A stretch of 64,000 nucleotides of DNA from Clostridia bacterium (GTDB lineage: Bacteria; Bacillota; Clostridia; TANB77; CAG-465): NCBI GenBank assembly GCA_036635835.1, contig JAVWPP010000002.1:4990-68989 (forward strand), read 5' to 3'. The translations under genes and the position numbers were made by a program. Positions 8,462 to 46,312 of this stretch are shown here, piece after piece. Each line of letters begins with the position of its first letter. Position 1 is the first letter of the stretch. The notes below the pieces were generated by a model. The model was given only the letters and a program-made list of their open reading frames with translations. It was not told the origin of the DNA and ran no database searches.

Positions 8462-8491
8462 AAATACAAAGTTATTCTAACTTAAAAACAG

Positions 8492-8537
8492 TCGAAATAC
8501 AGATGATTAGAGATAATTATCTGTATTTCGATTTTTT
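8492..8537. terminator. bidirectional intrinsic terminator
   Basis: 13-bp stem tcgaaatacagat/atctgtatttcga then TTTTTT. It lies between convergent genes. Confidence 0.55.
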
Positions 8538-8577
8538 ACGAAAAAAATATTTGCTTAATATAATGTTAAACAAATAT

Positions 8578-9168
8578 TTAATCTATAGTAATTGTATATT
8601 TTTTATTGCTTTTCTTATCTATATAAATATATGCATAGTCTGTCTCGACCATATCAAATAAATCTTCAGTATATAAAAAATCCAAAAAAGATAATAAAGT
8701 AGTTTTGGAACTAACCATTCCATCTAAAATAAAATCATTAGCGGTTTTAGAATAATATAATTCTGCAGAAGTAAGCATATTAATAGGATAATCTATAATT
8801 CTATTGTAAGCAAAAATTTCTTCAGGTACAACGGAAGTTGTAATAAGGACAACTGGCTGTTCATAGGTTCCTTCTACATAATCAAAAAAGCTGCAAGTTG
8901 TGTTTACATATTCCGGAGTATCTTTAAAAATATTATTTACCACAAAACAATTGGAATCTTTTTTCACTATAATTTTTACTCCATTGTAATCTTCGTTTGC
9001 GTAATATGGAGAATCTTTTGGATTTAAATAACAGCACATTGCTTTTTTTGTGAAATTGTTTATAGTTAAAATACTATCGCAAAAATCAGATAATTTTATA
9101 CCATATTTAACAACATCACATTGCTGGTCTTTTTTTATAAAAAGATATACATATTTCAAAATAAACAC
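8578..9168 (-). CDS. hypothetical protein (196 aa)
   Basis: Long minus-strand ORF divergent from the 9250 ORF. No recognisable motifs. Confidence 0.5.
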   Translation of the reverse strand: MFILKYVYLFIKKDQQCDVVKYGIKLSDFCDSILTINNFTKKAMCCYLNPKDSPYYANEDYNGVKIIVKKDSNCFVVNNIFKDTPEYVNTTCSFFDYVEGTYEQPVVLITTSVVPEEIFAYNRIIDYPINMLTSAELYYSKTANDFILDGMVSSKTTLLSFLDFLYTEDLFDMVETDYAYIYIDKKSNKKYTITID

Positions 9169-27712: not shown

Positions 27713-28399
27713 ATGAATATAAATAAAAAAAATATAAGTATAATTGTAGCAGTAGTTGTTGTTATAATTATTGCAGTATTAGGATTTAATATAACTAAGG
27801 ATATTGTAACAAATAGCAATAAAAAAACATCTACAGAGTTAACAAAAAAGCTTGAAACATTAAATAAAAAATATCCAGAAGCAAAAGCCTGGTTAAAAGT
27901 AAATAATACAACTATAAATATGCCTGTATTTCAATCTAACGATAATAATAAATATTTAAGATTAAATAGAGATGGAAAAGAAGCTAAATGGGGCGAAGCT
28001 TATTTAGATTACAGAGTAGATTTAAAAAAAATAAACGATAAAAGTAATATTATAATATATGGACATAATACTGAACAAGACACGTTGTTTACGCCATTAT
28101 TAAAATATAAAGACGAAGAATTTTTCAAAAAAAATAAAACAATTCAATTAGCAATTAAAGATAAGGAATATAAATTTGAAATTATATCTGCTTTTGTTAC
28201 AGATACTAGTTATTTTTATATAGATACTGAGTTTAAAAACGTAGAAGAATATGATAATTTTACAAATGAAATAAAAAGTAAAAGCATATACGATACAGGA
28301 GTTAAATTAAAGAGTAACGATACAATATTAACGTTATCTACTTGTGAGTACTCTATAGAAAATGGTAGATTCGTAGTGGTAGCTAGATTAGTTAAATAA
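27713..28399 (+). CDS. srtB: class B sortase
   Basis: N-terminal TM anchor, His motif IIIYGHN, Cys motif TLSTCEY, Arg in RFVVVARL. Confidence 0.75.
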   Translation: MNINKKNISIIVAVVVVIIIAVLGFNITKDIVTNSNKKTSTELTKKLETLNKKYPEAKAWLKVNNTTINMPVFQSNDNNKYLRLNRDGKEAKWGEAYLDYRVDLKKINDKSNIIIYGHNTEQDTLFTPLLKYKDEEFFKKNKTIQLAIKDKEYKFEIISAFVTDTSYFYIDTEFKNVEEYDNFTNEIKSKSIYDTGVKLKSNDTILTLSTCEYSIENGRFVVVARLVK

Positions 28400-28405
28400 A
28401 GAAAA

Positions 28406-28435
28406 GAGCAGTAAATAAAAATTACTGCTCTTTTT
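28406..28435. terminator. bidirectional terminator between srtB and the SASP gene
   Basis: gagcagtaa/ttactgctc hairpin flanked by T-runs on both strands. Confidence 0.55.
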
Positions 28436-28516
28436 AGTTATACTACTTGAATTATATACTATTAATTAAATATAAACATAAATAATAGTAAGACAAAATA
28501 ATTCATAAAATAGAAA

Positions 28517-28720
28517 CTAGTTTTTTCCTGACATTTGGTTTTCAGCTTGCATTATTAATTTCTTAACCATTGCACCACCGATAGAACCAGCTTGTTTAGA
28601 AGTTAAGTCACCGTTGTATCCTTGTTTTAAGTTAACACCGATTTCGTTAGCAACTTCATATTTGAATTTGTTTAAAGCTTCTTTAGCTTCTGGAACTGCT
28701 TTTTGATTTGAACTTGGCAT
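28517..28720 (-). CDS. ssp: alpha/beta-type small acid-soluble spore protein
   Basis: SASP signature segments KYEVANEIGVNL and GSIGGAMVKKLI. RBS aaaggagg. A loose sigma-G-like promoter element lies upstream. Confidence 0.85.
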   Translation of the reverse strand: MPSSNQKAVPEAKEALNKFKYEVANEIGVNLKQGYNGDLTSKQAGSIGGAMVKKLIMQAENQMSGKN

Positions 28721-28919
28721 AATTTGTTCACCTCCTTTTTAACATTAAGTAAAAACTAAATCTTTACTTAGTCATAATTTGTGCAGTAAAAATGAAATAA
28801 TACATTTTAAATCGTTTTTTTCGAAAAAAATTGTGACAGAAAAATTTTTAATATGTCAAACTCATTGCATTTTTATGTAAAGTGTGATAAAATATAAGGG
28901 TAGATTACGGAGGTTAAAT

Positions 28920-30098
28920 ATGAAAAAAATAATATCAATTAGTTTAATAATAATGATATTAGCAATAAATACACAAGTATTTGCAGCATCAATACCTATA
29001 GTTAATATAGGTGGACCCAATAGAGCTGAAGTACAAGTAGGTGGATCAGTAAGTTATACTGTTGCATTTTACGGTGCTAATTCAATTAATTTAAAAAGTT
29101 CAGATATAGGAATCGCGGGTTCTGGTGTAACAGCAGCAAAGACGGTTTCAGGATCTGGTAATACAAGGACAGTTACACTTAGTAATATACAAGGTGAAAT
29201 AGGTAAAGTTGTAAGTATAGCTATTAGATCAGGAGTAGCAACTAACGCATCTGGAAGTTCAGTGCAAACACCTAATTCTATTGGCTTTGTAATAAAACAA
29301 GGTCAATATGATAATGTAAAGCCTTCTATTACAGTAACAGGCCCTTCTAAAAATAATGTAGATTTAGGAGCTTCAGTTGTATATAACGTAAATTATTCAG
29401 ATAAAAGTGGTATAAAGAATATTTCTTTAAATAGTTCAAGTATAGCTTTATTTGGATTTACAGCAAATGTGTCAATTAGCGGAACTGGAACTTCAAGAAG
29501 AATAACATTAAATAACGTTCAAGGCGCAGAAGGTGGCAATAAATATATAAGTATTAAAAGCGGAACAGCAGCGGATATGGTTGGAAATTTAGCTTATGGT
29601 GTAGAAAGAACAACAAAATTTTGTATAAATGCAAAACCAGTTGAAACACCTAGTAATCAAGAAATAAAACCAGTAGAGAATAAGCAAACAGACGTAAACA
29701 AGCCAACTATTAATATTTCTGCACCAAGTGCAACTTCAATTTTAGCAGGTGAAACAATAAGATATGTACTTACATACAATGATGATCAAGGATTACAAAA
29801 TATATCGTTAAAAATTGATGATGTAAAATTAATAGGGTTTACAGCGGATATAACAATAGAAAATGATGAAAATAAAAGAGTGATTATATTATCAAATGTA
29901 CAAGGAGACTTAGAAACTGAAAAATACATATCAATCAATTCGGAAACTGCAGTAGACCTTAAAGGTAACAAAGCAGAAGCTGTAAATAAAACTATTCCAT
30001 TTAAAATAGAAAAAAAAGCAGAAATAAATGATAAAAAATATAATGATGGTAGACCAAATGATTGGATAGAAAATCCAAACACGGGAAAAAACATATAA
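28920..30098 (+). CDS. secreted surface protein with three tandem repeats of about 95 aa, C-terminal NPNTG
   Basis: Signal peptide MKKIISISLIIMILAINTQVFA. Repeats share GFTA[ND].SI.G.G..R.I.L.N[IV]QG. The protein ends ...ENPNTGKNI followed by a stop. Confidence 0.7.
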   Translation: MKKIISISLIIMILAINTQVFAASIPIVNIGGPNRAEVQVGGSVSYTVAFYGANSINLKSSDIGIAGSGVTAAKTVSGSGNTRTVTLSNIQGEIGKVVSIAIRSGVATNASGSSVQTPNSIGFVIKQGQYDNVKPSITVTGPSKNNVDLGASVVYNVNYSDKSGIKNISLNSSSIALFGFTANVSISGTGTSRRITLNNVQGAEGGNKYISIKSGTAADMVGNLAYGVERTTKFCINAKPVETPSNQEIKPVENKQTDVNKPTINISAPSATSILAGETIRYVLTYNDDQGLQNISLKIDDVKLIGFTADITIENDENKRVIILSNVQGDLETEKYISINSETAVDLKGNKAEAVNKTIPFKIEKKAEINDKKYNDGRPNDWIENPNTGKNI

Positions 30099-30104
30099 AA
30101 AAAG

Positions 30105-30133
30105 CACGTAATATAAAAGTTACGTGTTTTTTT
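30105..30133. terminator. bidirectional terminator
   Basis: cacgtaa/ttacgtg hairpin then T7. There is also a T-run on the other strand. Confidence 0.55.
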
Positions 30134-30147
30134 ATTCCTAACTGAAT

Positions 30148-30369
30148 TTATCCTTTAGGAGGAGTTGGATCATTTCCATAACTATCTTTGTCACGGAATT
30201 TTCCGTTTGCTGCATGTATAAAGACTTCAGATTTTTGGTTTATTGCGATCCTTCTTGCTATAACAATAGCTTCTTGTTGTGTATCTACATTTCTTGTAGC
30301 TTTAGAATTTCCTTCACCTCTAACTGACCAACCTCCGTTATTACGTTTTACAACATGTTGATTTGGCAT
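30148..30369 (-). CDS. DUF2188-family small protein
   Basis: MPNQHVVKRNNGGWSVRGEGNSKATRNVDTQQEAI...KDSYGNDPTPPKG. Start chosen at the MPNQ ATG after agaggtga. Confidence 0.6.
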   Translation of the reverse strand: MPNQHVVKRNNGGWSVRGEGNSKATRNVDTQQEAIVIARRIAINQKSEVFIHAANGKFRDKDSYGNDPTPPKG

Positions 30370-30713
30370 GAATATCACCTCTTTTTCTAAAATTATTATA
30401 TCAAGAAAAATTAACATGTACAATACATTATTGATAAAAAATGCAAATAGTTCAATCTTGTATACTTTTCATCATATTTACATCTTAAAGTGTTATCTAA
30501 TATAAAAAATCTCCCTATAAATATATAGAAGTAACTTATACTTTTTTCAATAAAAATAATAATACACTTACACATCTACTGTACAAAGTTCGAAATATTT
30601 AGCATATTAGCAGAATTCTTTCAGAAAATAGTGTAAAAAACTACGATTTTTTGTTGATGTATTATGTTAACTGTGATATAATATACACTATTAAAAGTAT
30701 CAAGGAGGTATAT

Positions 30714-32648
30714 ATGAAAAGAAAATTAATTATTATAATTTTAATATTCACAATAACATTTATAAATTTAAATTGTTGTGCGTACATATATGCTGCTCCT
30801 TTAGACAACATACCGCCAACAGTAACTATATATTATGCGGGCAACCAAGCTGTTAAATTAGGGGAAAGCATAGTATATAATATTACGTATTTAGATAATA
30901 CTAAAGTAGAAAGCATAAAATTAAAAAATTCAGATATAAGTTTAAATGGATTTACAGCTAATATAGATATACAAGCAAATCAAAATAAAAGAAAAATAAT
31001 ATTAAGCAACATTCAAGGTGAAATTGGAGTTAATAAATACATAAGTTTAAAACCAGGAACTGCTGTAGATATCTCTGGAAATGTAGCAAAAGGCGTGGAT
31101 AGAAGTGCGTACTTTAGAATTGTAGATTCTAAAGATTCAAAAAATCCAGATATATATTTAAGTGGACCATCAGACAAAACTGTACATATGGGAGAAAGCA
31201 TAACATATACGGCCAAATATTCAGACAATATAGGTATAGAAAAAATAAATTTAACAAGTAAAAATATAATACTAAACGGATTTGAAGCTAATATCAATGT
31301 TTATGGCTCAGGAATGGAGCGAAAAATAAAACTAAGCAATATAAGTGGGGAATATGATCAAGATAAAAGCATAACTATTAGCTCGGGAACGGCTGTAGAT
31401 GCCGCAGGAAATAAGGCTTATGGAATAAGTATGTCTCAAAAATTCTCAATAGTAGAAAAGCAAACAGATTTTAATGGCAAAATAATAAATATACCTGTAG
31501 AAGAATCCATTCTAACTTCTATTGAAGACCAAGAATCGTTTGAATGTACGGATCCTGTAACTTTAGAAATTGATAATAAAGTAAAAAAAGCTGGTATGTG
31601 GTTTGATGTTACTAGAGATAATGTTAAAAATTTTTATGAAAATAATTACATTTCCGAAGGCAAAACTTGCACATACAACATCCAATTTTATAATAATACA
31701 GATGAAAACTTAGAAAACGTACTAATCAGACTATCAATTCCTAAATCTGTGGATGTAGTAGAAGTTACAGCTGGCGGTGAAAAAGTAAGTAAAACTAATC
31801 AATTAACCGTAGTACAATGGAAAGTAGGAAAACTAGAAAAAGGTAAAGGATATACATTAAAAGCAAAAGTAAAATTTTTAGAAGATACAAACTTAAAAAA
31901 GAGTAAAGAGCTAGTTTCAGAATTTTTTTCTAAAGTAGATATGATATCAGATAAACAAATAAATTCCATGTATACAAGGCAAGCGTTTGTTGATCTTTCT
32001 AAAAATAAATCGGCAAAGTCAAAAAAATATTTAAAAATATATACTTTTCCAAGTAAAATAAGCCCTAGCGAAAAAATATCTAAAGTGGATTTTGCTAGAA
32101 TAATAATAGATAGCGGTATAATAAAAAATATTCCTAGTAAAAAAGGATATAAGTCATATAACGATAAAAATAAAATACCGTTTAATCAAAGAAAAGCAGT
32201 TAGTACTATGACTGAAATTGGAATATTTATGCCAGATGAAAAGGGAAATTTAAATGCAGACAAGTTAATAACAAAAGCTGAAATGTATGATATATTGATG
32301 AAAGTTTTAAAATACAAGTATAATGATCTATTAGTAAGTGAAGCAACGCCCTTTATTGTAAATAAAGATATTACAAATAATGAAAATGAAGCATTAGAGT
32401 ATAAAAATTCAGTAATGCAGCTTATTAGAATGAACATAGTAGAAAGATCTAGTATAAATATAAGCGAAACAGCTACTATACAAGATGTATTGCAAGTAGT
32501 TAACTGCGTTACATATAGAGATAACATTGGAAAAATTAAAAATATAAACAATACAAAATTTGCAAAAGAAAACTTAGATCTTATTACTATTGCAACAAAA
32601 AATATTAAATATAAGTATGATAAAGACTTGAAAATGCAAGTAGTTTAA
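30714..32648 (+). CDS. secreted surface protein, two copies of the same repeat domain plus unrelated C-terminal region
   Basis: Start at MKRKLIII after aaggagg. Repeats GFTANIDIQANQNKRKIILSNIQGE and GFEANINVYGSGMERKIKLSNISGE. No sorting signal. Confidence 0.65.
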   Translation: MKRKLIIIILIFTITFINLNCCAYIYAAPLDNIPPTVTIYYAGNQAVKLGESIVYNITYLDNTKVESIKLKNSDISLNGFTANIDIQANQNKRKIILSNIQGEIGVNKYISLKPGTAVDISGNVAKGVDRSAYFRIVDSKDSKNPDIYLSGPSDKTVHMGESITYTAKYSDNIGIEKINLTSKNIILNGFEANINVYGSGMERKIKLSNISGEYDQDKSITISSGTAVDAAGNKAYGISMSQKFSIVEKQTDFNGKIINIPVEESILTSIEDQESFECTDPVTLEIDNKVKKAGMWFDVTRDNVKNFYENNYISEGKTCTYNIQFYNNTDENLENVLIRLSIPKSVDVVEVTAGGEKVSKTNQLTVVQWKVGKLEKGKGYTLKAKVKFLEDTNLKKSKELVSEFFSKVDMISDKQINSMYTRQAFVDLSKNKSAKSKKYLKIYTFPSKISPSEKISKVDFARIIIDSGIIKNIPSKKGYKSYNDKNKIPFNQRKAVSTMTEIGIFMPDEKGNLNADKLITKAEMYDILMKVLKYKYNDLLVSEATPFIVNKDITNNENEALEYKNSVMQLIRMNIVERSSINISETATIQDVLQVVNCVTYRDNIGKIKNINNTKFAKENLDLITIATKNIKYKYDKDLKMQVV

Positions 32649-32806
32649 CGAAAAATAGAGGAAACTCTATTTTTTTTTGTTAAATCATGGTCATAAACGC
32701 AAAGTATATTGAATTTTTATGTAATCTGTGGTATAATGAATGTATAGTTTAATATTTCTATAAACCTTTAAATAAAGATTTAATAAAATAATAGGAGATG
32801 ATAAGT

Positions 32807-35620
32807 ATGAAAATATTTATACAATATTTCAAAGACTATAGAGAATCTTACAAATCATTAAAACCATTGCAAAAATTAGTTCCTATATTAGGAATTGCAC
32901 TGGCTGCATTTTTAGCTAAAGTAAATGTAATTCTTACTTTGGTAGTTTTAGGACTATCATTTGTATATATTACTAACAATGCTACAAACGTAGCTAAGCT
33001 ACAAGAAAGTGAAAACAAAAACGCAGAACAATCTAATCCTTTCAGCATAGCAAAGGCAGTTATATTTTTCGCAATTCTTGCTTGTGTTTCTTATAAGCTT
33101 TGGACTGTTAACAAGGTGATCCTTGGAGTAGTAGTTGTCTTTATGGCATTTTATTATAACAAGAAAATCAAGGGAACAGTTCATTTAAGTAAGAAAAACA
33201 TTTCTTTTGACAAGACTAAAGCATTTTTTACAGAAAAGAAATTCGCAGGTATGTTTAAGTCATCAAAAGAAAACAAAAAAGAAAAGAAAGCAAAAACAGA
33301 CAAGAAAGCAAAAAATGAAATGAAAGATTCTAAATTTCAAAACTTTAAAGTATCAATAGTAGAAAAAGCAAAAATACTAAAACAAAAATTATTAAAAGGA
33401 GGCATTAATATGCGGACTTCAATTAGAAAACACTTAAATTTTAAAAACGTAGTAGTATCTATACTTTTAGCAGCATCCCTTAGCTTGGGTGGAATCTTTG
33501 CATATACACAACTTAGTAAAAAGCCATGTGATTGCAAAGCAAAAGCTCAATATCAGGAAATGCTAAATGAGGCTTATCAAGAATTAGACACAGCATACGA
33601 CGAAATAGACAAGCAAAATGAAAAAATTGAAGAATTAGATGACAAAATAGCTGAAATGGAAAATGAAGACAAAGCAGAAGTAGAAGCAAAAACAGAATCA
33701 GCTCCAATAGAAGCTATTACAACATCACCAATAACAGAGTACAATCCTAATAATAATAACAATAATTCAAGTTCGTCATTAGGCTCTTATAATAATGATA
33801 CAAGTAGTATTAATAAAGACAGTAGTTCAAATGGCGGAAATGACAATTCATCAACAGTTGATACACCAAGTTCTTCAGTAGATAATCAAGCACCACAAGT
33901 TAAACTTGTAGGTAACTCACAAGTCGAAGCAGGTAAAGAATACACACTACAAGTTATAATCGAAGACGAAAATCTTAAAGAAGTTGGCCAAGTAAAAGAT
34001 TATTTCAAAGGTTTAGAAAATGCAAAAATAGGAGAACCAACACAAATATCAAGCTCAAATTACAAGTTCCCTATAACATTTGAAAAAGCCGGCGAATACA
34101 AGGTTTATATTTCTGAAGGATTAGCTAAAGATACAGTAAATTTAACATCAGGTAAGAGCAACGAGCTAACAATTTCAGTAACAGAAGCTAAGCCAAACCC
34201 AGAAGATAAACCAGAAGTAGCAACAGATACTAATAAACCAGTTGTAACAGTAGAAACAAGTAACTTAAATCTTAAAACAGGCGAAAAAGTATCAATTACT
34301 CTTAAAGCAACTGATGACAACAAAATCGACAAATTCTATATTGGAGCTTCATTGATTAACGGCACAACAATAGGACAATTTGAAGTGGATTCAATTTCAG
34401 AAAATGACGATTCAAGAGTTGTTAATTTTATCGCTAAAAAAGCAGGAACTTACAATGTATCATTTAGTGAAGGAATCGCAGTTGACGAAGCAGGAAATAA
34501 ATCTGATGCACCTAACGCTATTACTTTCGTAGTAACAGACAAAGATAATTCAGAAGATAAACCTGTAGAGCCAGGACAACCAGTTGAACCAGTAGAACCT
34601 TCAAAAGATACAGAGAAGCCACAGCTTTCTTACGAGTCAAGTAATGCTACTATTTACGAAAATTTTACTATTACTTTAAATGCTAAAGACAATGTTGAGA
34701 TTAAATCATTTGATTTCAGTGAATCAGATATTAATTTACCAGAAGGATGCAAATATTTAAATCACAGTTTTAAAGATCAATCTACAGTAGAAATACTAAT
34801 TTTAGTGGACAGCCTTGTAGATGATTCAGGTAATTTAAATTTCAGTATTAACGAAGCGGTTGTTACAGACACTTCAGGTAATAAATCAGACCAATTGAAT
34901 ATTACTGTTCCTGTTACAGGAGTAGATAATACAGAGAAGCCAGAAGTATTACCAGAAGAACCAGAACAAAGTGAAGAATTAGCTATAACATTAAGCGCAG
35001 ACAGACAATCAGTAACATCAGGTGAAAGCTTTTACGTTATAGGAACTCCTAATACAACTCTTAACGGATATACTTTAAATAGAGCGAATATACAAGTACC
35101 GGAAGGTATTGAGATAGGTTCAATCGAACAAAGTACCGATAAAATTGTAATAGAGGTTAAAACTTCTACAAATGTTACAGGTTCAGTTAATATAACAATC
35201 GATAATGCAGTTAATACAGTTACAGTAGATGTTACACCAGTTGAAACTATCACTGAAAAACCGGTTACACCAGAAGCCCCAGCAGAAGAACCTATTATAG
35301 AAGAAGTAGTACCTAGTATTACAAGTCCTTCTATAGAGGAAAATAATGTTGAGGTGAAAGAAGAAACAGTTGTACCAGAAGCCCCAGTAGACAATATAGA
35401 AGAGGACGTTAAAGAAGAGGTTTCAAACGGTTCTGAAGAAGTAATTCAAAATGAAACAACTAACCAAGATGATTGGGAAGAAGTTAATATTGATGAAACA
35501 GTAGAACCAGTACAACCAGTAGAACCAGTACAACCAGTAGAATCAACACAACCAGTAGAAAATCAACAAGAAACTTTAGTTTCAGATGAAATTCCAGTCT
35601 TTGAATCAGCAGATAGCTAA
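32807..35620 (+). CDS. membrane-anchored giant surface protein (about 937 aa)
   Basis: Four predicted N-terminal TM helices, a coiled coil, an Asn/Ser-rich linker, repeated Ig-like segments and Pro-rich VEPVQPVEPVQPVESTQPV repeats. Confidence 0.65.
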   Translation: MKIFIQYFKDYRESYKSLKPLQKLVPILGIALAAFLAKVNVILTLVVLGLSFVYITNNATNVAKLQESENKNAEQSNPFSIAKAVIFFAILACVSYKLWTVNKVILGVVVVFMAFYYNKKIKGTVHLSKKNISFDKTKAFFTEKKFAGMFKSSKENKKEKKAKTDKKAKNEMKDSKFQNFKVSIVEKAKILKQKLLKGGINMRTSIRKHLNFKNVVVSILLAASLSLGGIFAYTQLSKKPCDCKAKAQYQEMLNEAYQELDTAYDEIDKQNEKIEELDDKIAEMENEDKAEVEAKTESAPIEAITTSPITEYNPNNNNNNSSSSLGSYNNDTSSINKDSSSNGGNDNSSTVDTPSSSVDNQAPQVKLVGNSQVEAGKEYTLQVIIEDENLKEVGQVKDYFKGLENAKIGEPTQISSSNYKFPITFEKAGEYKVYISEGLAKDTVNLTSGKSNELTISVTEAKPNPEDKPEVATDTNKPVVTVETSNLNLKTGEKVSITLKATDDNKIDKFYIGASLINGTTIGQFEVDSISENDDSRVVNFIAKKAGTYNVSFSEGIAVDEAGNKSDAPNAITFVVTDKDNSEDKPVEPGQPVEPVEPSKDTEKPQLSYESSNATIYENFTITLNAKDNVEIKSFDFSESDINLPEGCKYLNHSFKDQSTVEILILVDSLVDDSGNLNFSINEAVVTDTSGNKSDQLNITVPVTGVDNTEKPEVLPEEPEQSEELAITLSADRQSVTSGESFYVIGTPNTTLNGYTLNRANIQVPEGIEIGSIEQSTDKIVIEVKTSTNVTGSVNITIDNAVNTVTVDVTPVETITEKPVTPEAPAEEPIIEEVVPSITSPSIEENNVEVKEETVVPEAPVDNIEEDVKEEVSNGSEEVIQNETTNQDDWEEVNIDETVEPVQPVEPVQPVESTQPVENQQETLVSDEIPVFESADS

Positions 35621-35755
35621 TGTTGATTTAAAAAACAGTATATTAAATCAAAAAAATCAAATTAGTAATTTGCAACTAGAAGCAAACTCTAATTGATTAG
35701 TGACTTCAGTGACGGAAAAGCATAATTTTATTCCAAAAAAATATTAATGTATTAA

Positions 35756-35881
35756 TTGTAGGGTAATACAAAAATATTTGGATGGAATATACAAGAAGAT
35801 AGTTACCAGAAGAAAACGAAATCAAGAACCAAACCTACAAATTGGTTTGAGAGATTGAATTCTATGGTAGCTACCCTACAA
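35756..35881. repeat. 10-bp inverted repeat pair TTGTAGGGTA / TACCCTACAA separated by about 106 bp
   Basis: Exact reverse complements at 35756-35765 and 35872-35881. A small hairpin caaacc/ggtttg sits between them. Confidence 0.6.
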
Positions 35882-35901
35882 GACATTTAAGAACGACAAA
35901 A

Positions 35902-35917
35902 ATTGGTGGCCACCAAT
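35902..35917. repeat. perfect 16-bp palindrome ATTGGTGGCCACCAAT
   Basis: Read directly from the sequence. The centre is GC-rich in an AT-rich context. Confidence 0.7.
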
Positions 35918-35949
35918 AAATATTTTCATAAAAAAATTATATATATATT

Positions 35950-36252
35950 AGCTAATTCTCACCTATTTAAAGCGTAAGCTTTAGAGAAAAACCTTTATTG
36001 CTGGGGCAATTAAGGCGGTGAGAGTTAGCACACAATTAAAAAATAAAAAATAATTAGTTGTGGACTTTTTTCTTGGGCACTAGTTCTTCTTCACTTCGGT
36101 GGAGAGGGACTGGAGCTCGAGATAAAAAGTTGGGGTTTTCCCCTTATCCAAGACAGTACACTTAGCATAATAGCGGATAACACAACTAATTTCAAAAAAA
36201 AAAAATATATATATATAATTAAAAAGAAAGTTGCATTTGCAGCTTTTTTTTT
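35950..36252. other. unexplained structured non-coding region with GC-rich core; candidate sRNA(s) or 3'-UTR element
   Basis: Stem tctcacc (35957-63)/ggtgaga (36017-23) encloses the hairpin aaagc-GTAA-gcttt. A GC-rich stretch spans 36060-36180. GGGGTTTTCCCC at 36132-43 reads as a minus-strand terminator, and agttgc-attt-gcagct plus T9 at 36229-52 reads as a plus-strand terminator. Confidence 0.35.
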
Positions 36253-36349
36253 GCGTTTAAATTCATAAAAAACATATAAAAAAACACATATAATATATTT
36301 CGACATTTTAAAACTTAATTTAGTGCTAAAATACTACTGAGGTGAAAAT

Positions 36350-36661
36350 ATGAAGTGCAATTATGAAGAAGATAATGAAATCTTAAAAGTTTTACTTACT
36401 CAAGATATAGATACTGGAGAATGTAAAAAAATACGAAATGTAATAGACGGATATATAATTAAATATCAGCCTAAAAAAGTAGTTTTAGATTTATCAAATG
36501 TATCATTTATGGACAGCTCTGGAATAGGGCTAGTAATGGGGAGATATAATTTAGCAAAAATGTTTAACAGTAAGCTAGCCATATGTAATCCAAATAAAAG
36601 AATAAAACAAGTGATTCAGCTTACTAATATAGATAAGTATGTAGAAATAATGGAGGTTTAA
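36350..36661 (+). CDS. anti-sigma-factor antagonist (STAS domain, SpoIIAA/RsbV-like)
   Basis: SNVSFMDSSGIGLVMG with the conserved Ser in DSSG. 103 aa. Confidence 0.75.
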   Translation: MKCNYEEDNEILKVLLTQDIDTGECKKIRNVIDGYIIKYQPKKVVLDLSNVSFMDSSGIGLVMGRYNLAKMFNSKLAICNPNKRIKQVIQLTNIDKYVEIMEV

Positions 36662-37087
36662 ATGGATAAGATACGTATTGAAATTGAAAGTAAATTAACA
36701 AATGTAGCGGTGGTAAGAGTAGCTGTTGCTACGTTTGTTGCAAATTACAATGTAAAATTAGATGAACTAGTAGATATTAAAACAGCAGTATCAGAAGCAG
36801 TTACAAATAGTATAGTGCATGGATACGAAGAAAAAAAAGGTACAATTGTTGTAGAATGTATATATTCTAAAGGTATTTTTGTAGTGAAAGTTATAGATAA
36901 GGGCATTGGAATTGGAGATATAAGTTTAGCTACAACCCCTGCTTATACAAGTAAACCGGAACTAGAACACGCCGGAATGGGTTTTACCATAATGTCAACT
37001 TTTATGGATGATCTAATTGTAGATTCTAGTGAGCAAGGTGGCACTATAGTAACTATGACGAAAAAAATAGATAATAACAATAAATGA
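36662..37087 (+). CDS. anti-sigma factor serine kinase (SpoIIAB/RsbW-like, HATPase_c)
   Basis: N-box EAVTNSIVHG, G1 DKGIGI, G2 GMGFTIM. The start overlaps the upstream stop (ATGA). Confidence 0.75.
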   Translation: MDKIRIEIESKLTNVAVVRVAVATFVANYNVKLDELVDIKTAVSEAVTNSIVHGYEEKKGTIVVECIYSKGIFVVKVIDKGIGIGDISLATTPAYTSKPELEHAGMGFTIMSTFMDDLIVDSSEQGGTIVTMTKKIDNNNK

Positions 37088-37144
37088 AATTAAAAAGGGA
37101 AAAAAACGCGTTTGGTATACATAATTGTGCACTTTTCCTTGTTA

Positions 37145-37186
37145 AACCGCTATATTTATGGTAAAATAAATATAGCGGTTTTTTTG
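37145..37186 (+). terminator. intrinsic terminator after the partner-switching pair
   Basis: 14-bp stem aaccgctatattta/taaatatagcggtt then T7. Confidence 0.7.
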
Positions 37187-37201
37187 ACTAAGGAGAGTTT
37201 A

Positions 37202-38107
37202 ATGATATATATAATAGATGACGAAAATGTAAATTTAAGAATAGATTCTTGTATTTCTAAATTAGATACAAAAATCACAAGAAGTTATGCTAAAATCTTA
37301 ATTGAAGATGGAAGTATACTTGTAAATAAAGAAATTCCAAAACCATCATATAAAGTTAGACTTAATGATGAAATAGAAATAAATATTAAAAAACCAAAAA
37401 TAACAAAAGCAATACCTCAAAAAATAGATGTAAATATAATTTATGAAGATGAAGATGTTATTGTTGTAGATAAAGAAAAAGGAATGGTTGTACATCCTGG
37501 TAATGGTAATTCAGATAATACATTAGTTAATGCTCTGCTTTACTCCCATGAAAATAATTTGTCTCAAATTAATGGAGTTATAAGGCCTGGAATTGTTCAT
37601 AGAATAGATAAAAACACAAGCGGAATACTTGTTGTAGCTAAAAATGATAAAGCACATAAAAGTCTATCTAATCAGTTTAAAGATCATAGTATAACTAGAG
37701 TATATGTAGCACTAGTAAAAGGAATAGTAAAAGAAGATATGGATATAGATTTGCCTATCGGAAGATGTCCTAGAGATAGAATAAAAATGGCGGTAACTAA
37801 TAAAAATTCAAAGAGAGCGGTTACACATATACATGTTTTGAAATGTTTTGAAGAAGATAAATATACGTTAATAGAAGCAAAACTTGAAACAGGGAGAACT
37901 CATCAAATTAGAGTTCATATGGCATACAAGAATCATCCGTTAGTTGGAGACGATTTGTATGGTAAACCAGATAAAAAAATCAAGATACAAGGTCAGTTGT
38001 TACATGCAAAGAAACTTGGATTTATACAGCCAACAACAGGTAAATACATAGAATTTGAAAGTGAAATACCAGAAGATTTTCAAACGATAATAAACAAATT
38101 AAAATAA
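37202..38107 (+). CDS. rluD: 23S rRNA pseudouridine synthase, RluA/RluD family
   Basis: S4-like N-terminal region, catalytic HRIDKNTSGILVVAK, HQIRVH. ATG follows aaggagag. Confidence 0.8.
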   Translation: MIYIIDDENVNLRIDSCISKLDTKITRSYAKILIEDGSILVNKEIPKPSYKVRLNDEIEINIKKPKITKAIPQKIDVNIIYEDEDVIVVDKEKGMVVHPGNGNSDNTLVNALLYSHENNLSQINGVIRPGIVHRIDKNTSGILVVAKNDKAHKSLSNQFKDHSITRVYVALVKGIVKEDMDIDLPIGRCPRDRIKMAVTNKNSKRAVTHIHVLKCFEEDKYTLIEAKLETGRTHQIRVHMAYKNHPLVGDDLYGKPDKKIKIQGQLLHAKKLGFIQPTTGKYIEFESEIPEDFQTIINKLK

Positions 38108-38197
38108 GCCCTACACAATAATATATGTAGGACTAAATCTATATCAAATAGAGCTCTATAGTATATAGTATGAAAATAAATAGAAAAAGGTGAAGAA

Positions 38198-38905
38198 ATG
38201 GAAGATAAAATCAGATTACAAAAGTATTTAGCAGATGCTGGCGTTTGTTCAAGAAGAACAGCGGAAGAATACATTGTAGATGGAAAAATAAAAGTAAACG
38301 GAAAAGTAGTTAAGGAAATGGGTATAAAAGTATCAAATAAAGATAAAGTTGTATATCAAGGCAGAACAGTTAAACCAACTAAAATAAGAAGATGTATAAT
38401 GTTAAATAAACCCGTTGGATACGTTACTACAAGTAAAGATGAATTAGATAGAAAATGTGTTATAGATTTAATACATGAAAGAGAAAGATACTATGCAATA
38501 GGAAGGTTAGATATGTATACAACAGGGCTGCTGCTATTAACTAACGATGGCGAACTTGCTAATAAAGTTATGCATCCTAAAAATGAAATAGTTAAAACAT
38601 ATGTAGCAACAATAGATAAAAAAATTGCTAAAGATGATGTTGAAAAATTAAGAGAAGGTGTAGATATTGGAGAATGTGTAACTAAAAAAGCGGAAGTTAA
38701 GCTTTTAGATAATACACATCAATTATTAGAAGTTAAAATATCTGAGGGCAAAAATAGACAAATAAGAAGAATGTTTGAGACATTAGGTTATGAAGTAAAA
38801 AAACTTAATAGAACGCAAGTAGGATCTTTAAAACTCAAAGAAGATCTTAAAATAGGCAAGTATGAAATATTAACTGATAGAGAAATCAAGAGAATTTTTG
38901 AATAA
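38198..38905 (+). CDS. rRNA pseudouridine synthase, RsuA/RluB family
   Basis: S4 domain LQKYLADAGVCSRR, catalytic GRLDMYTTGLLLLTNDG. Confidence 0.8.
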   Translation: MEDKIRLQKYLADAGVCSRRTAEEYIVDGKIKVNGKVVKEMGIKVSNKDKVVYQGRTVKPTKIRRCIMLNKPVGYVTTSKDELDRKCVIDLIHERERYYAIGRLDMYTTGLLLLTNDGELANKVMHPKNEIVKTYVATIDKKIAKDDVEKLREGVDIGECVTKKAEVKLLDNTHQLLEVKISEGKNRQIRRMFETLGYEVKKLNRTQVGSLKLKEDLKIGKYEILTDREIKRIFE

Positions 38906-43025: not shown

Positions 43026-46005
43026 TAGTAGATATATTAGAAAAATTGATTATAGAGAACCAACTGCAGATTATAAGATAGCAAATCAAGTTAAAGATGG
43101 TTCTAAAGTATTAGAAATAGGTACATCAAGTGGGTATATGTCAGAATTCCTTGTTAAGGAGAAAAACTGCATACTTTCAGGTGTGGAATATAATACAGAG
43201 CTTTTTAATAAAGCAAAAGTTTTTTTTGAAAATGGATATAATGAAGATCTAAATAAAATAACTCAGTGGGAAGATAAAATACAAGATAATTATTTTGATT
43301 ATATAATTTGTCAAGATGTATTAGAGCATTTGTTAAATCCATTTGAAGTTATTAAAGCGCTTATGAAAAAACTAGCTAAAAACGGCAAAATATTAGTTTC
43401 TATACCGAATGTATCTCATAATGCAATTTTGATGGAAATACTTAAAGATAAATTTTCATATGAGCAATCTGGAAGTTTGGATTATACTCATTTTAAGTTC
43501 TATACAGCTAAATCTTTTAAAGACGAAGCAAATAAAATAGGTCTTAAAGTAATTCATCATGATATAACATATTTAATACCGGAAGATTCAAGTTTGAATA
43601 ATAGCTATAAAGATTATAGTTTGAAAGAAAGAGAAGTGCTTTTTGATCATTATAATGGACATGTATTTCAAAATATTTTTGTTCTTGGAAAAAAAGAAGA
43701 ATATGCTGATGAAAAAGAAAAATTAATTCAATTTAAATTGCAAAACTATGATGAGGTTATTATAGAAACTAAAAGTAATGTAAAGAGATATTATTATCAT
43801 GATGCTGAATTAATAGAATATATTTTAGAAAAAGGTACTCAAAATGTTAAAATATATCCAAGTATAAGACTTAAAAAATTTAATGTGGATTTGTATATTA
43901 ATGATGAAAAACAGTATATATCTTCTTTTGATTATCAAGCTGGAATTATACATGAAAATGAAGATAGATATATTTCTACTGGAACTGAATGTATAAATTT
44001 AAAAAGAGATTTTAAAAAAGGAGATAAAGTAGGAATACGCATTACTAGTAGCGAGAGTATTTTTGATCAGATTATAAAAGGCGAAAATTATTTTAATTCC
44101 GAAATAACTAATATTAAAGCGAAAATAGATAAATATACCCACATTTCTATAGCTGCATGGGATACGTTTATTTTAAAAAATGTGCTTAAATTTGACGATA
44201 TAATAGAGATAGTAGATAGAAAAGTAAGAACTAAGTTTGGTATAAATAACTTTGCTAAAAGGAGATTAGCTGCTAAATCGTATGAAATAGATGAAATTTA
44301 TGAAGAGTTAAGAATATTTTTAAAAGATAAAACCGAAGATGTTAAAAAAATAGAAATAGAGACTGTTCAAGAGTTTTCTATAGTTAACCCATTTATGCTT
44401 GAGATTTTGGATTTTTGCAAAAGACAAAATAAAAATGTGTATATTGTTAATAATGGTTATCTAGATAGCAACATTTTGATGGCTGTGCTGCATAATTTGC
44501 AGATTACTAATTTAAAAGTTATATCATATGATGATCTGCTTAAGTTCGATCTAGATCAGCTATTGCATATTGGTTCGGATATAAAAAAAGATATTATTAA
44601 TCTTAAAAGTTTAAATATAAATACGTATATGTATAAGGCTGTGCAAAAACGAGTAGAAAATAGAAAGAGTTTGGAAACTAAAAATATCTCAGAATCTATT
44701 ATGAGAGCCATTCAATATAATTATATATATAACGGCCTGCATATTAAATATTTTGAAAAGTTTGGTATTGAAAACGTAGCACCTATATACTTCTATTTTA
44801 CAAACTGGTTATACAATAAAAGTAAAGATAAAGACAATATATTTTTCTTATCTAGGGATGGATATATGCCATTTAAAGTATATAAATTGCTTCAGAAAAG
44901 TAGAAATACAGATAAATATATTAAGTATGTGTATGCGTCAAGAAAAGGTTATCAAATACCTGGACTTGCAACTGTAGGAATAGACAAAGCTTTGAGCGTT
45001 TTAACAGAGTTTAATTTGCAGTTAGATGAACAGCTTATACTTTCAGATGTTTTTAAAAATGCAACATTAAACCCAGAAGAAGTTTCAAAACAAAAGTTAG
45101 AAAAGTATGGCTTTAAATCTATAGATGCTAAAGTTAATATTAAAAACATAAATAAAGCAAAAGAACTGCTTAAAGAATACTATCCAAAAATTAAAGAAAA
45201 CTTGCAAAATAAATTAGAGCTTGCAAGAGAATATTTAAAATCTGAAGAATTTGATAAATTTGATACAGTAAATATTGTAGATATTGGTTGGAGAGGTAGC
45301 GTGCAAAATTACATACAAAAAATAATGAATAAAAAAACGTATGGATACTATTTTGGAACAATACCTACAGAATATAAAGAAATAAGAAAAAATATGCTTG
45401 GTTGCTATAGCAATAAATTTATGCCGCTATTACGTAGTGAATTTATATTAGATAACATTATGATGTTTGAGCTTGTATTTTCAGCACCGTTTCCACCACT
45501 TGTTGGTTTCGAAAAAAATAGTAAAGGCAAGGTTGTTCCGGTATTTAGTAGTGTAAAATCAGACACCTTTAATAAAGCAGTTAAAACTTTTCAAGAATCT
45601 GCTCTATATATTATAGAAAAATTTATGGATTATGATGAGTATCTATCAGAAATAGATATAGACTTTTCACTTAGTAATTATAAAAAATATATTGCGGATA
45701 AAAAGTACGCAGATATAATTGAAATGCATAAATTACAAACTAACATAGGTTATGGCGAAAAACAGCGTAAATACGTAGAAACAGTCAAACTTGAAACATT
45801 ACTTGCAGACAATATAAAAGTGCTTAAAAAGGCTAATTACGGCTTCTGGAAAGGTGCTATATACATAGAAGGAGTAGAAACACAAAAAGAATATGACGAA
45901 ATAAAGAAGAAATATAACTTTAAGACGTCGCTTGGCGCAATTAAAGCTTCTAGGTATTACAGAGGAGCAGAAGCTATGTTAAATAAGAAGCAAAAAAATA
46001 AATAA
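43000..46005 (+). CDS. fusion protein with N-terminal class I SAM-dependent methyltransferase plus a diverged copy of the DIGWRGS domain (WbdD/WsaE-like chain-terminator candidate)
   Basis: MTase motif I VLEIGTSSGYMSEFL, post-I DYIICQDVLEHL. The C-terminal half aligns with the 38978 protein (FLSRDGYMPFKVY, DIGWRGS). TTG start overlaps the upstream gene by 26 nt. Confidence 0.6.
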   Translation: MNTIGNTSSSRYIRKIDYREPTADYKIANQVKDGSKVLEIGTSSGYMSEFLVKEKNCILSGVEYNTELFNKAKVFFENGYNEDLNKITQWEDKIQDNYFDYIICQDVLEHLLNPFEVIKALMKKLAKNGKILVSIPNVSHNAILMEILKDKFSYEQSGSLDYTHFKFYTAKSFKDEANKIGLKVIHHDITYLIPEDSSLNNSYKDYSLKEREVLFDHYNGHVFQNIFVLGKKEEYADEKEKLIQFKLQNYDEVIIETKSNVKRYYYHDAELIEYILEKGTQNVKIYPSIRLKKFNVDLYINDEKQYISSFDYQAGIIHENEDRYISTGTECINLKRDFKKGDKVGIRITSSESIFDQIIKGENYFNSEITNIKAKIDKYTHISIAAWDTFILKNVLKFDDIIEIVDRKVRTKFGINNFAKRRLAAKSYEIDEIYEELRIFLKDKTEDVKKIEIETVQEFSIVNPFMLEILDFCKRQNKNVYIVNNGYLDSNILMAVLHNLQITNLKVISYDDLLKFDLDQLLHIGSDIKKDIINLKSLNINTYMYKAVQKRVENRKSLETKNISESIMRAIQYNYIYNGLHIKYFEKFGIENVAPIYFYFTNWLYNKSKDKDNIFFLSRDGYMPFKVYKLLQKSRNTDKYIKYVYASRKGYQIPGLATVGIDKALSVLTEFNLQLDEQLILSDVFKNATLNPEEVSKQKLEKYGFKSIDAKVNIKNINKAKELLKEYYPKIKENLQNKLELAREYLKSEEFDKFDTVNIVDIGWRGSVQNYIQKIMNKKTYGYYFGTIPTEYKEIRKNMLGCYSNKFMPLLRSEFILDNIMMFELVFSAPFPPLVGFEKNSKGKVVPVFSSVKSDTFNKAVKTFQESALYIIEKFMDYDEYLSEIDIDFSLSNYKKYIADKKYADIIEMHKLQTNIGYGEKQRKYVETVKLETLLADNIKVLKKANYGFWKGAIYIEGVETQKEYDEIKKKYNFKTSLGAIKASRYYRGAEAMLNKKQKNK

Positions 46006-46010
46006 AAAAT

Positions 46011-46041
46011 GGAGATAGATTTATATTCTATCTCTTTTTTT
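46011..46041 (+). terminator. intrinsic terminator
   Basis: gagatag/ctatctc hairpin followed by T8. Confidence 0.6.
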
Positions 46042-46051
46042 TGGATTTGTA

Positions 46052-46107
46052 GACTAAAAAAATAACACAAATAAGCCAAAAGAGAAAACTCCTTTGCTTA
46101 TCTGTGT
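46052..46107 (-). terminator. intrinsic terminator for rpsU
   Basis: 13-bp stem aacacaaataagc/gcttatctgtgtt with a T-run on the minus strand. Confidence 0.55.
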
Positions 46108-46138
46108 TATTAAGTTTTATATTTCAAGTATATAAAGT

Positions 46139-46312
46139 CTAGTGTTTTCTTTTTCTAGCTGCTTCAGATTTCTTTTTTCTTTTTACGCTAGGTTTTTCAT
46201 AGTGTTCTCTTTTTCTTATTTCAGCAAGAACCCCATATTTAGCGCATTGTTTTTTGAATCTAGCAATAGCATTATCTAAACTTTCATTGTCTTTTAATTT
46301 TATTCCTGGCAT
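46139..46312 (-). CDS. rpsU: 30S ribosomal protein S21
   Basis: [48 protein letters not shown]. Start taken at the MPG ATG after ggaaggagggg. The track ORF extends further upstream and is probably spurious. Confidence 0.8.

Follow-up and report, generated by a model that had tools for sequence, protein, structure and literature searches.

The 64,000-nt stretch analyzed here (the window; contig JAVWPP010000002.1, positions 4,990–68,989) comes from a Clostridia bacterium and has a G+C content of 28% over its whole length. The host is a spore-former by gene content, with a gene for an alpha/beta-type small acid-soluble spore protein (SASP), PolC, and sortase present. A 729-bp spacer at 35621–36349 separates two plus-strand genes, one for a surface protein of 940 aa and the next for a STAS/SpoIIAA protein. 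We concluded that this spacer is most likely the source of a single long plus-strand RNA, folded very tightly and without a match among known families; as a sequence feature it is real and unusual and carries no annotation. The sequences that border it are listed below.

32798–35620, plus strand: surface-protein gene, 940 aa, with an N-terminal membrane anchor, repetitive extracellular domains, and an acidic tail
36299–36345, plus strand: spoIIAA promoter and leader, with TTCGACA at 36299–36305, a −10-like TAAAAT at 36327–36332, and the ribosome-binding site GAGGUGA at 36339–36345; the ATG is at 36350
36350–36661, plus strand: STAS/SpoIIAA gene

The surface-protein gene has its own promoter region and is preceded by a terminator-like hairpin and T-run just 3′ of the previous gene. 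Downstream of spoIIAA lie a gene for a SpoIIAB-type anti-sigma kinase and then two pseudouridine synthase genes. We take TTCGACA (36299–36305) to be a Spo0A-box-like site, assuming the consensus TGNCGAA. The structured element ends before the spoIIAA promoter and is not the spoIIAA leader. The longest open reading frame (ORF) in the spacer, 71 aa on the minus strand, was of low complexity and had no Pfam match, in agreement with the first-pass annotation of this DNA, which had reported no plausible ORF. By our own reading, no GGAGG-type ribosome-binding site stood upstream of this or the other small ORFs of the spacer, and the DNA of the small ORFs had no counterpart in related lineages. We rejected a coding explanation, as these ORFs were neither credible nor conserved.

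Fold strength set the spacer apart from the rest of the window. The plus strand had a minimum free energy (MFE) of −199.2 kcal/mol, compared with −123.0 ± 6.0 kcal/mol in dinucleotide shuffles (z = −12.75), which bears out the nested structure first described in this noncoding region. The minus strand reached −172.7 kcal/mol (z = −11.1), so that the plus strand was more stable by 26 kcal/mol. When the whole window was scanned in 150-nt windows corrected for G+C, positions 36001–36150 ranked first and 35926–36075 second for plus-strand over-structure. The remaining outliers were ordinary terminators or a tRNA, and no other intergenic region of the 64 kb matched the spacer in structure. The GC-rich core noted in the first pass was likewise found, with a G+C of 0.38–0.44 at 36000–36200 against a window background of 0.28.

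In the MFE fold, about 12 helices make up the plus-strand RNA model. Its main parts are a pair of long hairpins whose loops are complementary, a perfect 16-nt palindrome, and two domains built around junctions. The spacer also holds nested perfect inverted repeats measuring 10, 11, 13, and 14 bp. The parts of the model are listed from 5′ to 3′.

35623–35651, plus strand: H0a, an AU-rich hairpin (MFE helices) directly 3′ of the stop codon of the 940-aa gene
35655–35698, plus strand: H0b, an AU-rich hairpin (MFE helices)
35729–35789, plus strand: H1, a 21-bp interrupted AU-rich hairpin with the apical loop AUUGUAGGG at 35755–35763
35756–35765 and 35872–35881: a perfect 10-bp inverted repeat, TTGTAGGGTA and TACCCTACAA, which encloses a hairpin at 35826–35848
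35800–35873, plus strand: H2, a long interrupted hairpin with the apical loop ACCUACAAA at 35833–35841, a putative kissing partner for the loop of H1
35866–35875, within H2: the 10-nt palindrome GGUAGCUACC
35902–35917, plus strand: the perfect 16-nt palindrome ATTGGTGGCCACCAAT, forming a 6-bp hairpin with a GGCC loop
35918–35948: linker 1, A-rich with (TA)n, a direct repeat of 36184–36214 (84% identity over 31 nt)
35951–36029, plus strand: domain B, a 13-bp closing stem, GCUAAUUCUCACC/GGUGAGAGUUAGC (35951–35963 with 36017–36029), around two hairpins
35966–35985, plus strand: domain B hairpin 1, aaagc-GUAA-gcuuu, with the GNRA tetraloop c-GUAA-g
35992–36015, plus strand: domain B hairpin 2
36052–36191, plus strand: domain C, the GC-rich core, an 11-bp perfect closing stem, AAUUAGUUGUG/CACAACUAAUU, and a 4-way junction with three arms
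36063–36131, plus strand: domain C arm 1, a 31-bp quasi-continuous helix with a c-UUCG-g cap and 4 G-U pairs in its apical 15 bp
36132–36143, plus strand: domain C arm 2, a GGGG-UUUU-CCCC hairpin
36144–36180, plus strand: domain C arm 3, a hairpin
36221–36252, plus strand: intrinsic terminator, with a GUUGC-AUUU-GCAGC core extended by A/U pairs and followed by U9

Neither H0a nor H0b is followed by a U-run, so these hairpins are not terminators. The inverted repeat TTGTAGGGTA/TACCCTACAA had been reported as enclosing a hairpin, and its sequence is as described, but it is better read as part of H1 and H2 with complementary loops and a third copy on the 3′ side. That third copy is TACCCTACAA, 3′ of H2, which is complementary to the H1 loop region and an alternative pairing partner for it. 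The stem of domain B includes the tctcacc/ggtgaga pairing around aaagc-GTAA-gcttt that had been picked out before; the stem is in fact 13 bp long and encloses the second hairpin as well. An A-rich linker lies between domains B and C. As to the A-rich/(TA)n linkers, those at 35918–35948 and 36184–36214 bracket domains B and C, and each holds a weak promoter-like pattern (TTCATA or TTCAAA ... TATAAT-like). The (TA)n part of 35918–35948 can pair with 36207–36220, a long-range pairing of low confidence.

Loop complementarity and palindromes add to this architecture. The H1 loop UUGUAGG is complementary to the H2 loop CCUACAA over 7 nt, which was reached in 4 of 300 loop shuffles. The palindrome ATTGGTGGCCACCAAT is the only 16-nt perfect palindrome of the 64-kb window that contains G+C and is not of low complexity, and one as long arose in 19 of 1,000 shuffles of the region.

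Transcript ends were considered next to this fold. The terminator scan called the hairpin and T9 at 36221–36252 terminator-like on the plus strand, and the site has the G+C stem-loop, the U-run, and the co-oriented transcription unit upstream that define an intrinsic (Rho-independent) terminator. It was kept in the related locus L013, with 96% identity over 26 nt, and equivalent hairpin and U-run terminators were found in L013, L020, L019, L016, and L021. The first-pass annotation had called this terminator an orphan; its terminator-like character and its conservation hold, but it is not an orphan, because it closes a continuous plus-strand structure that runs from the 940-aa gene with no terminator between. 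No other plus-strand terminator was called by the scan between the stop codon (35620) and 36221. There was no good sigma-A promoter in 35621–35730 of the window and none convincing in L012, and promoter-like sites in the spacer were rarer than in shuffles (4 compared with 9.5 expected). With no terminator after the stop codon and no good promoter in 35621–35730, read-through is therefore the simplest source of a transcript.

Comparison with relatives showed that a structured element persists at this position. Distant relatives were gathered through their SpoIIAB-like kinase, 61–78% identical to that of the window; they include a sister lineage, lineage C (L012, L013, and L020), lineage D (L016, L021, L111, and L113), and the closest relative, L019. 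Ten syntenic loci from uncultured Clostridia had a plus-strand-biased structured element at the same position, with sequences that differ between lineages. The order of surface-protein gene, structured spacer, terminator, and spoIIAA promoter was kept in the relatives with a recovered upstream flank, and the promoter block CGACA ... TATAAT ... GAGGTGA was conserved in all lineages. The z scores of the relatives were as follows.

L012: plus strand −13.4, minus strand −4.4
L013: plus strand −14.9, minus strand −12.5
L020: plus strand −8.9, minus strand −3.9
L019: plus strand −9.4, minus strand −5.0
L021: plus strand −7.2, minus strand −0.7
L110: plus strand −7.6, minus strand +0.5
L113: plus strand −5.2, minus strand −0.5
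L016: plus strand −3.9, minus strand −1.8
L111: plus strand −3.4, minus strand +1.1

The plus strand folded better than the minus strand in 10 of 10 syntenic loci, for example with an MFE of −285 compared with −216 in L012 and −73 compared with −50 in L021. G-U pairs were also commoner in the plus-strand fold at all ten (plus/minus counts of 14/11, 8/3, 35/7, 15/13, 21/13, 5/4, 13/0, 8/3, 9/4, and 9/2). GNRA or UNCG sequences made up two of seven plus-strand 4-nt loops in the window and two of four in L019; among minus-strand tetraloops there were none in any locus. Strand bias, G-U pairs, and tetraloops together indicate selection on a plus-strand RNA.

A covariation analysis, which the first-pass annotation had proposed, was productive in lineage C, whose element can be aligned. 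There, 28 of 68 pairs were changed on both sides, compared with 11.1 ± 2.4 in shuffles (reached in 0 of 500), and slid controls gave 2–8 compensatory pairs; 90.6% of cells were paired. Invariant loops stood atop fully covarying stems. The lineage C element opens with two hairpins bearing complementary apical loops, the same arrangement as in the window with different bases. In L012 and L013 the analogous loop pair, AUAGGUGU/ACACCUAU, spans 8 nt and was reached in 0 of 300 loop shuffles. A further downstream copy complementary to the H1 loop exists in both the window and lineage C. Second H1-loop partners in the relatives are a duplicated H2 in L012, and CACTATACACC and CCTATACACAC just 5′ of the terminator in L013 and L020. 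In every lineage with a long spacer, the element closes with a clamped 4-way-junction domain that has one helix of 23–31 bp. This shared architecture supports the view that the element of the window may be the same kind of RNA as the covarying element of lineage C.

Most lineages also had a perfect palindrome of 14–20 nt of their own in the spacer, with a different sequence each time, matched in 0–37 of 1,000 shuffles. It stands shortly 3′ of H2 in the window, L013, and L020. These palindromes could be an RNA dimerization site, a protein operator, or the trace of template-switch mutation. Their positions in the relatives are given here.

L013, 4297–4312 and 4336–4353: perfect palindromes
L020, 848–865: perfect palindrome
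L021, 4380–4395 and 4418–4437: perfect palindromes
L019, 61–74: perfect palindrome

Among strains, six same-species sequences had the spacer in one orientation at 99% identity. The length of the surface-protein gene varied among the same-species strains L001–L005 (638, 933, 937, and 940 aa) while the spacer stayed 99% identical. Of six strain polymorphisms inside the RNA, five fell in predicted unpaired linkers and the sixth at the terminal pair of the GGGG/CCCC hairpin. One polymorphism, C36016T, sits in an unpaired bulge of domain B.

Lineage D had a shorter conserved element of ~150 nt with one hairpin (Hc) showing covariation and no Rfam match. It lies upstream of the spoIIAA promoter, at the positions below.

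L016, 4478–4626: lineage D element
L021, 4468–4630: lineage D element
L111, 1340–1491: lineage D element
L113, 120–271: lineage D element

Within this element we observed the words UAUGG and CCUAAG on the same strand, only 3 nt apart; in the classic 11-nt GNRA-tetraloop receptor they make up its two strands. The GGTAGCTACC segment of the window's H2 occurs also in L016 and L021.

Searches for known families and further copies gave no match to the spacer. The Rfam scan that the first-pass annotation had recommended used Rfam 15, whose families include OLE, ROOL, GOLLD, raiA, HEARO, 6S, T-box, riboswitches, and ribozymes. Over the whole window at the gathering threshold it found only tRNA-Pro, and over 35400–36500 at E values up to 10 only chance microRNA-type hairpin matches far below threshold; L012, L013, and L016 gave nothing at E up to 0.5. 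No tRNA or transfer-messenger RNA was present in the spacer. No second copy was found in the 64-kb window or in ~130 kb of related loci, a BLAST search of 35700–36260 in distant mode against phages and plasmids gave no match, and no viral contig matched the core of domain B or that of domain C in exact-pattern scans. The genome contig collection (GTDB representatives), scanned with the SpoIIAB-like kinase, yielded only spoIIAB loci at 43–48% identity, the representatives including neither this species nor its near relatives. In the literature, we found no described RNA upstream of spoIIAA. A scan of JGI metagenome contigs with the lineage C H1 motif TAGGTGTNTATAGTGGG gave 88 matches, none with the H2 partner, which were chance matches and an unrelated termite-gut repeat. 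About 25–30 metagenome contigs, presumably from termite guts judging from the sample-ID prefixes, share a nearly identical stretch of ~100 nt around TAGGTGTCTATAGTGGGATCGCGGATGTCAATTGTATACCCAG, an unrelated multi-copy element.

Contigs with the TAGGTGTCTATAGTGGGATCGCGGATGTCAATTGTATACCCAG stretch, part 1: L023, L028, L030, L031, L038, L048–L050, L054, L057, L058, L060, L062
Contigs with the TAGGTGTCTATAGTGGGATCGCGGATGTCAATTGTATACCCAG stretch, part 2: L071, L074, L077, L079, L082–L086, L091, L095, L101, L103

Several candidate systems were tried and dropped. A retron, a type I toxin-antitoxin system, an integron attC site, and an insertion sequence-associated guide RNA were set aside because the required partner gene is absent. 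A retron msr-msd has no adjacent reverse transcriptase: downstream are the STAS, HATPase anti-sigma kinase, and pseudouridine synthase genes, and upstream the surface protein. For a type I toxin-antitoxin system, the small ORFs have no visible GGAGG-type ribosome-binding site and their DNA was not found in related lineages. An oriC was rejected since genes remain co-oriented and GC skew is monotonic. An invertible DNA switch was not supported: six assemblies share one orientation, and the neighboring genes include no recombinase.

The analysis showed directly the structure signal, the strand bias, the terminator, the persistence of the element at syntenic positions, and the covariation in the sister lineage; transcription of the spacer, the start of the transcript, and the role of the RNA are inferred. 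Our favored reading, held with somewhat less than even confidence, is that this RNA forms the long, structured 3′ trailer of the mRNA for the surface protein, where it would serve as stabilizer and insulator. Because the 940-aa gene has no terminator of its own, polymerase most likely runs on to 36221–36252, which would produce a giant 3′ trailer. Positions 35623–36252 would then be the template of one ~630-nt plus-strand RNA, co-directional with both neighboring genes, with RNA polymerase reading from the 940-aa gene through the spacer and stopping at 36221–36252. The stable stack of helices and the terminator would block 3′-to-5′ exonucleases and stabilize the upstream mRNA, by analogy with cry 3′ inverted repeats, while the same structure may insulate the downstream Spo0A-controlled spoIIAA-spoIIAB promoter from read-through. 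The 23–31-bp helices and A-rich linkers are plausible RNase III and RNase Y sites, and processing there could release stable sub-fragments. As expected from the location of a 3′ retroregulator, the element is contiguous with the coding region and includes the terminator.

A number of results weigh against the trailer. A trailer of 630 nt and 12 helices far exceeds the need for exonuclease protection or termination. In L013, TTGACA-18-TATATT ends 2 nt 5′ of H1, and in L020, TTGACA-16-TATATT lies ~24 nt 5′ of H1; both match 11 of 12 consensus positions, and these near-consensus sigma-A promoters favor an independent transcript there. Outside the terminator and the promoter, the sequences of different lineages do not align. 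An nhmmer profile of the lineage D element gave no significant match in the window or other lineages, and the covariance model R1, built on lineage C H1-H2, missed H1-H2 of the window, where its best matches (E ~0.1) lay elsewhere. With lineages that cannot be aligned and both models failing, the homology of the elements is therefore argued from position and architecture only. In the window's own lineage there are only 99%-identical strains to compare, and the closest relative, L019, is unalignable. Strand-biased C-to-T mutation could add to the G-U asymmetry, and compensatory change can be imitated by DNA-level template switching from one hairpin arm to the other.

The promoters just 5′ of H1 in L013 and L020 make an independent transcript a serious alternative. 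The RNA would then be a trans-acting or scaffold-type large noncoding RNA of a new "ornate" class, with its own promoter 5′ of H1, an H1-H2 kissing pair as a tertiary contact, and the palindrome as a possible homodimerization site, and it would be merely parked between the surface-protein gene and spoIIAA; we consider this main rival only somewhat less likely than the trailer, though short of probable. It fits the statistically supported loop-loop complementarity, the perfect 14–20-nt palindromes enriched in most lineages, the multi-way junctions and stable tetraloops, and the behavior of lineage C, where the stems covary but the loops of H1 and H2 do not change, nor does AGCCCACU, which is complementary to AGUGGGC in H1. 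Known ornate RNAs oligomerize through contacts of this type (PMC12286853). Ornate RNAs and riboswitches already known keep conserved nucleotides across phyla, however, and sequence turnover between lineages is much faster here. The absence of a convincing sigma-A promoter in the window or L012, an element of only ~150 nt in lineage D, and a narrow distribution with nothing in the JGI metagenomes scanned also argue against it. Slightly less probable, and offered tentatively, is the proposal that the spacer belongs to an undescribed class of large (0.5–0.9 kb), fast-evolving, multi-domain RNAs, "ornate" like OLE, ROOL, and GOLLD, that is confined to a clade of uncultured spore-forming Clostridia. 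As a whole, the equally doubtful picture of this class would include a covarying kissing-loop pair, clamped 4-way junctions, a palindromic hairpin for possible homodimerization, and a link to the spoIIA or cell-surface locus.

Readings without a single plus-strand RNA were judged less probable still. It is unlikely that the structure has no RNA function and is a DNA-level by-product of palindrome formation (template switching, local duplications, or decayed insertions like REP elements or miniature inverted-repeat transposable elements [MITEs]) in a tolerant spacer. Such an origin would account for the nested perfect inverted repeats of 10–14 bp, the perfect palindromes, the A-rich/(TA)n direct repeats flanking domains B and C, the local H2 duplication in L012, and the fast turnover between lineages, and template switching could imitate compensatory change. 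Yet the element is single-copy in the window and in ~130 kb of clade loci and was found in none of the phage, plasmid, and viral collections; no comparably structured intergenic region exists in the window; the plus strand is favored at 10 of 10 loci, with RNA-specific tetraloops on that strand only; and lineage C loops are invariant while stems vary, with strain polymorphisms avoiding helices. The perfect closing stems are 11–14 bp long, and clear target-site duplications were not recognized in the A/T-rich flanks. Of the three candidates in the first-pass annotation, the long structured 3′ untranslated region (UTR) and the small RNA remain the two best readings, but the degraded MITE finds no support, given a single copy in all sequence searched, a syntenic position, and a consistent strand bias. 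Two convergent small RNAs, a sense/antisense pair with terminators on both strands, would be improbable. A minus-strand promoter-like TTGAAA-17-TATTAT (36195 to 36167; 10 of 12 matches), a minus-strand terminator-like hairpin called by the scan (35850 to 35829), and a good minus-strand fold (z = −11) point that way. But a well-folding complement is to be expected of any structured RNA, the minus strand was at every locus the less stable one and the poorer in G-U pairs, its "terminator" is the H2 apex read on the other strand, and the spacer has 4 promoter-like sites where shuffles have 9.5. The minus-strand terminator proposed earlier at GGGGTTTTCCCC (GGGGAAAACCCC with its T-run) was not upheld, as it is a stem of only 4 bp, where at least 5 bp would be required, inside domain C, and the scan called it on neither strand. 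The accompanying remark that no minus-strand gene lies within 10 kb to the right proved correct, with no long minus-strand ORF there for >10 kb. Least probable, and hardly credible to us, is a DNA-level switch (an invertible, phase-variable segment) or an operator array for a dimeric regulator. Inverted repeats do flank 100–120-bp segments beside a strain-variable surface-protein gene, and a perfect 16-bp palindrome is present; against this, the six strain sequences share one orientation at 99% identity, no recombinase is adjacent, and the interiors of the repeats are dense with hairpins that favor one strand, which a DNA switch does not need.

The trailer reading has parallels among known systems. 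RNase III-dependent 3′ retroregulation of the lambda sib/int type involves a helix of >20 bp 3′ of the coding region, and the spacer is alike in its predicted long helix 3′ of the coding region (31 bp in the window, 23–28 bp in relatives). A closer likeness is to the cry1A 3′ inverted-repeat "positive retroregulator" of Bacillus thuringiensis (Wong & Chang 1986, as reviewed in PMC4113751). The cry 3′ inverted repeats stabilize cry mRNAs and are thought to block 3′-5′ exoribonucleases (PMC4113751). On the trailer reading, both elements are structured 3′ UTRs that include the terminator, follow a gene for a structural protein (highly expressed in the case of cry), and occur in a spore-forming Firmicute. 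The cry element consists of one or a few stem-loops, whereas the spacer covers ~630 nt with at least 12 helices, among them a pair of clamped junction domains, hairpins with complementary loops, and a perfect palindrome.

The large ornate noncoding RNAs OLE, ROOL, GOLLD, and the raiA motif (PMC12286853, PMC10861870, PMC11706538) resemble the spacer in size (0.5–0.9 kb), multi-domain build, occurrence in Firmicutes, potential kissing loops, and the lack of a nearby gene for a known protein partner. A link to sporulation exists for the raiA motif, and the spacer adjoins spoIIAA. In contrast, the spacer had no covariance-model match to OLE, ROOL, GOLLD, or raiA even at E up to 10, and the ornate classes keep nucleotides over wide distances whereas these spacers are unalignable between lineages with SpoIIAB-like kinases ~75% identical. 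The spacer is also like REP/BIME, BOX, RUP, Correia, and ERIC elements and MITEs in its nested inverted repeats, intergenic position, and strong predicted hairpins. Families of the REP/BIME type are multi-copy and dispersed, whereas the spacer is single-copy in the sequence searched, positionally conserved, and strand-biased.

Few parts of bacterial genomes are understood as poorly as 3′ UTRs and large orphan structured RNAs. If our conclusions are correct, few of the bacterial 3′ trailers or noncoding RNAs described would equal this one in length and density of folding, and it would be unusual in that fold density and architecture persist at one position while the sequence turns over between close lineages. 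It would then offer a test case for whether selection targets "structuredness" itself or a specific fold. The position just 5′ of the Spo0A-controlled spoIIAA promoter suggests possible insulation, or coupling of surface-protein expression with entry into sporulation. Should palindrome-generating mutation alone have produced the element, it would instead serve as a warning to those who search AT-rich genomes for noncoding RNAs by structure.

We also observed several features of the surrounding sequence. At 36350–38905, the spoIIAA-like STAS and spoIIAB-like kinase genes are not followed by sigF; two RluA-family pseudouridine synthase genes stand there instead, and a small DUF6514 ORF intervenes at the spoIIA-like locus in some relatives. 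At 27713–32648, a sortase gene is followed by a minus-strand alpha/beta SASP gene (28517–28720) and a minus-strand DUF2188 gene (30148–30423), and three surface-protein genes on the plus strand (404, 665, and 940 aa) are interspersed among them. This sortase, SASP, and surface-protein neighborhood recurs in L016 and L021. After the spacer, the next most over-structured places in the window were 45976–46200 and 8401–8625, which look like ordinary tandem or bidirectional terminators (ggagatag...ctatctc with a T-run; aacacaaataagc...gcttatctgtgtt; and cagtcgaaatacagat...atctgtatttcgattttt).

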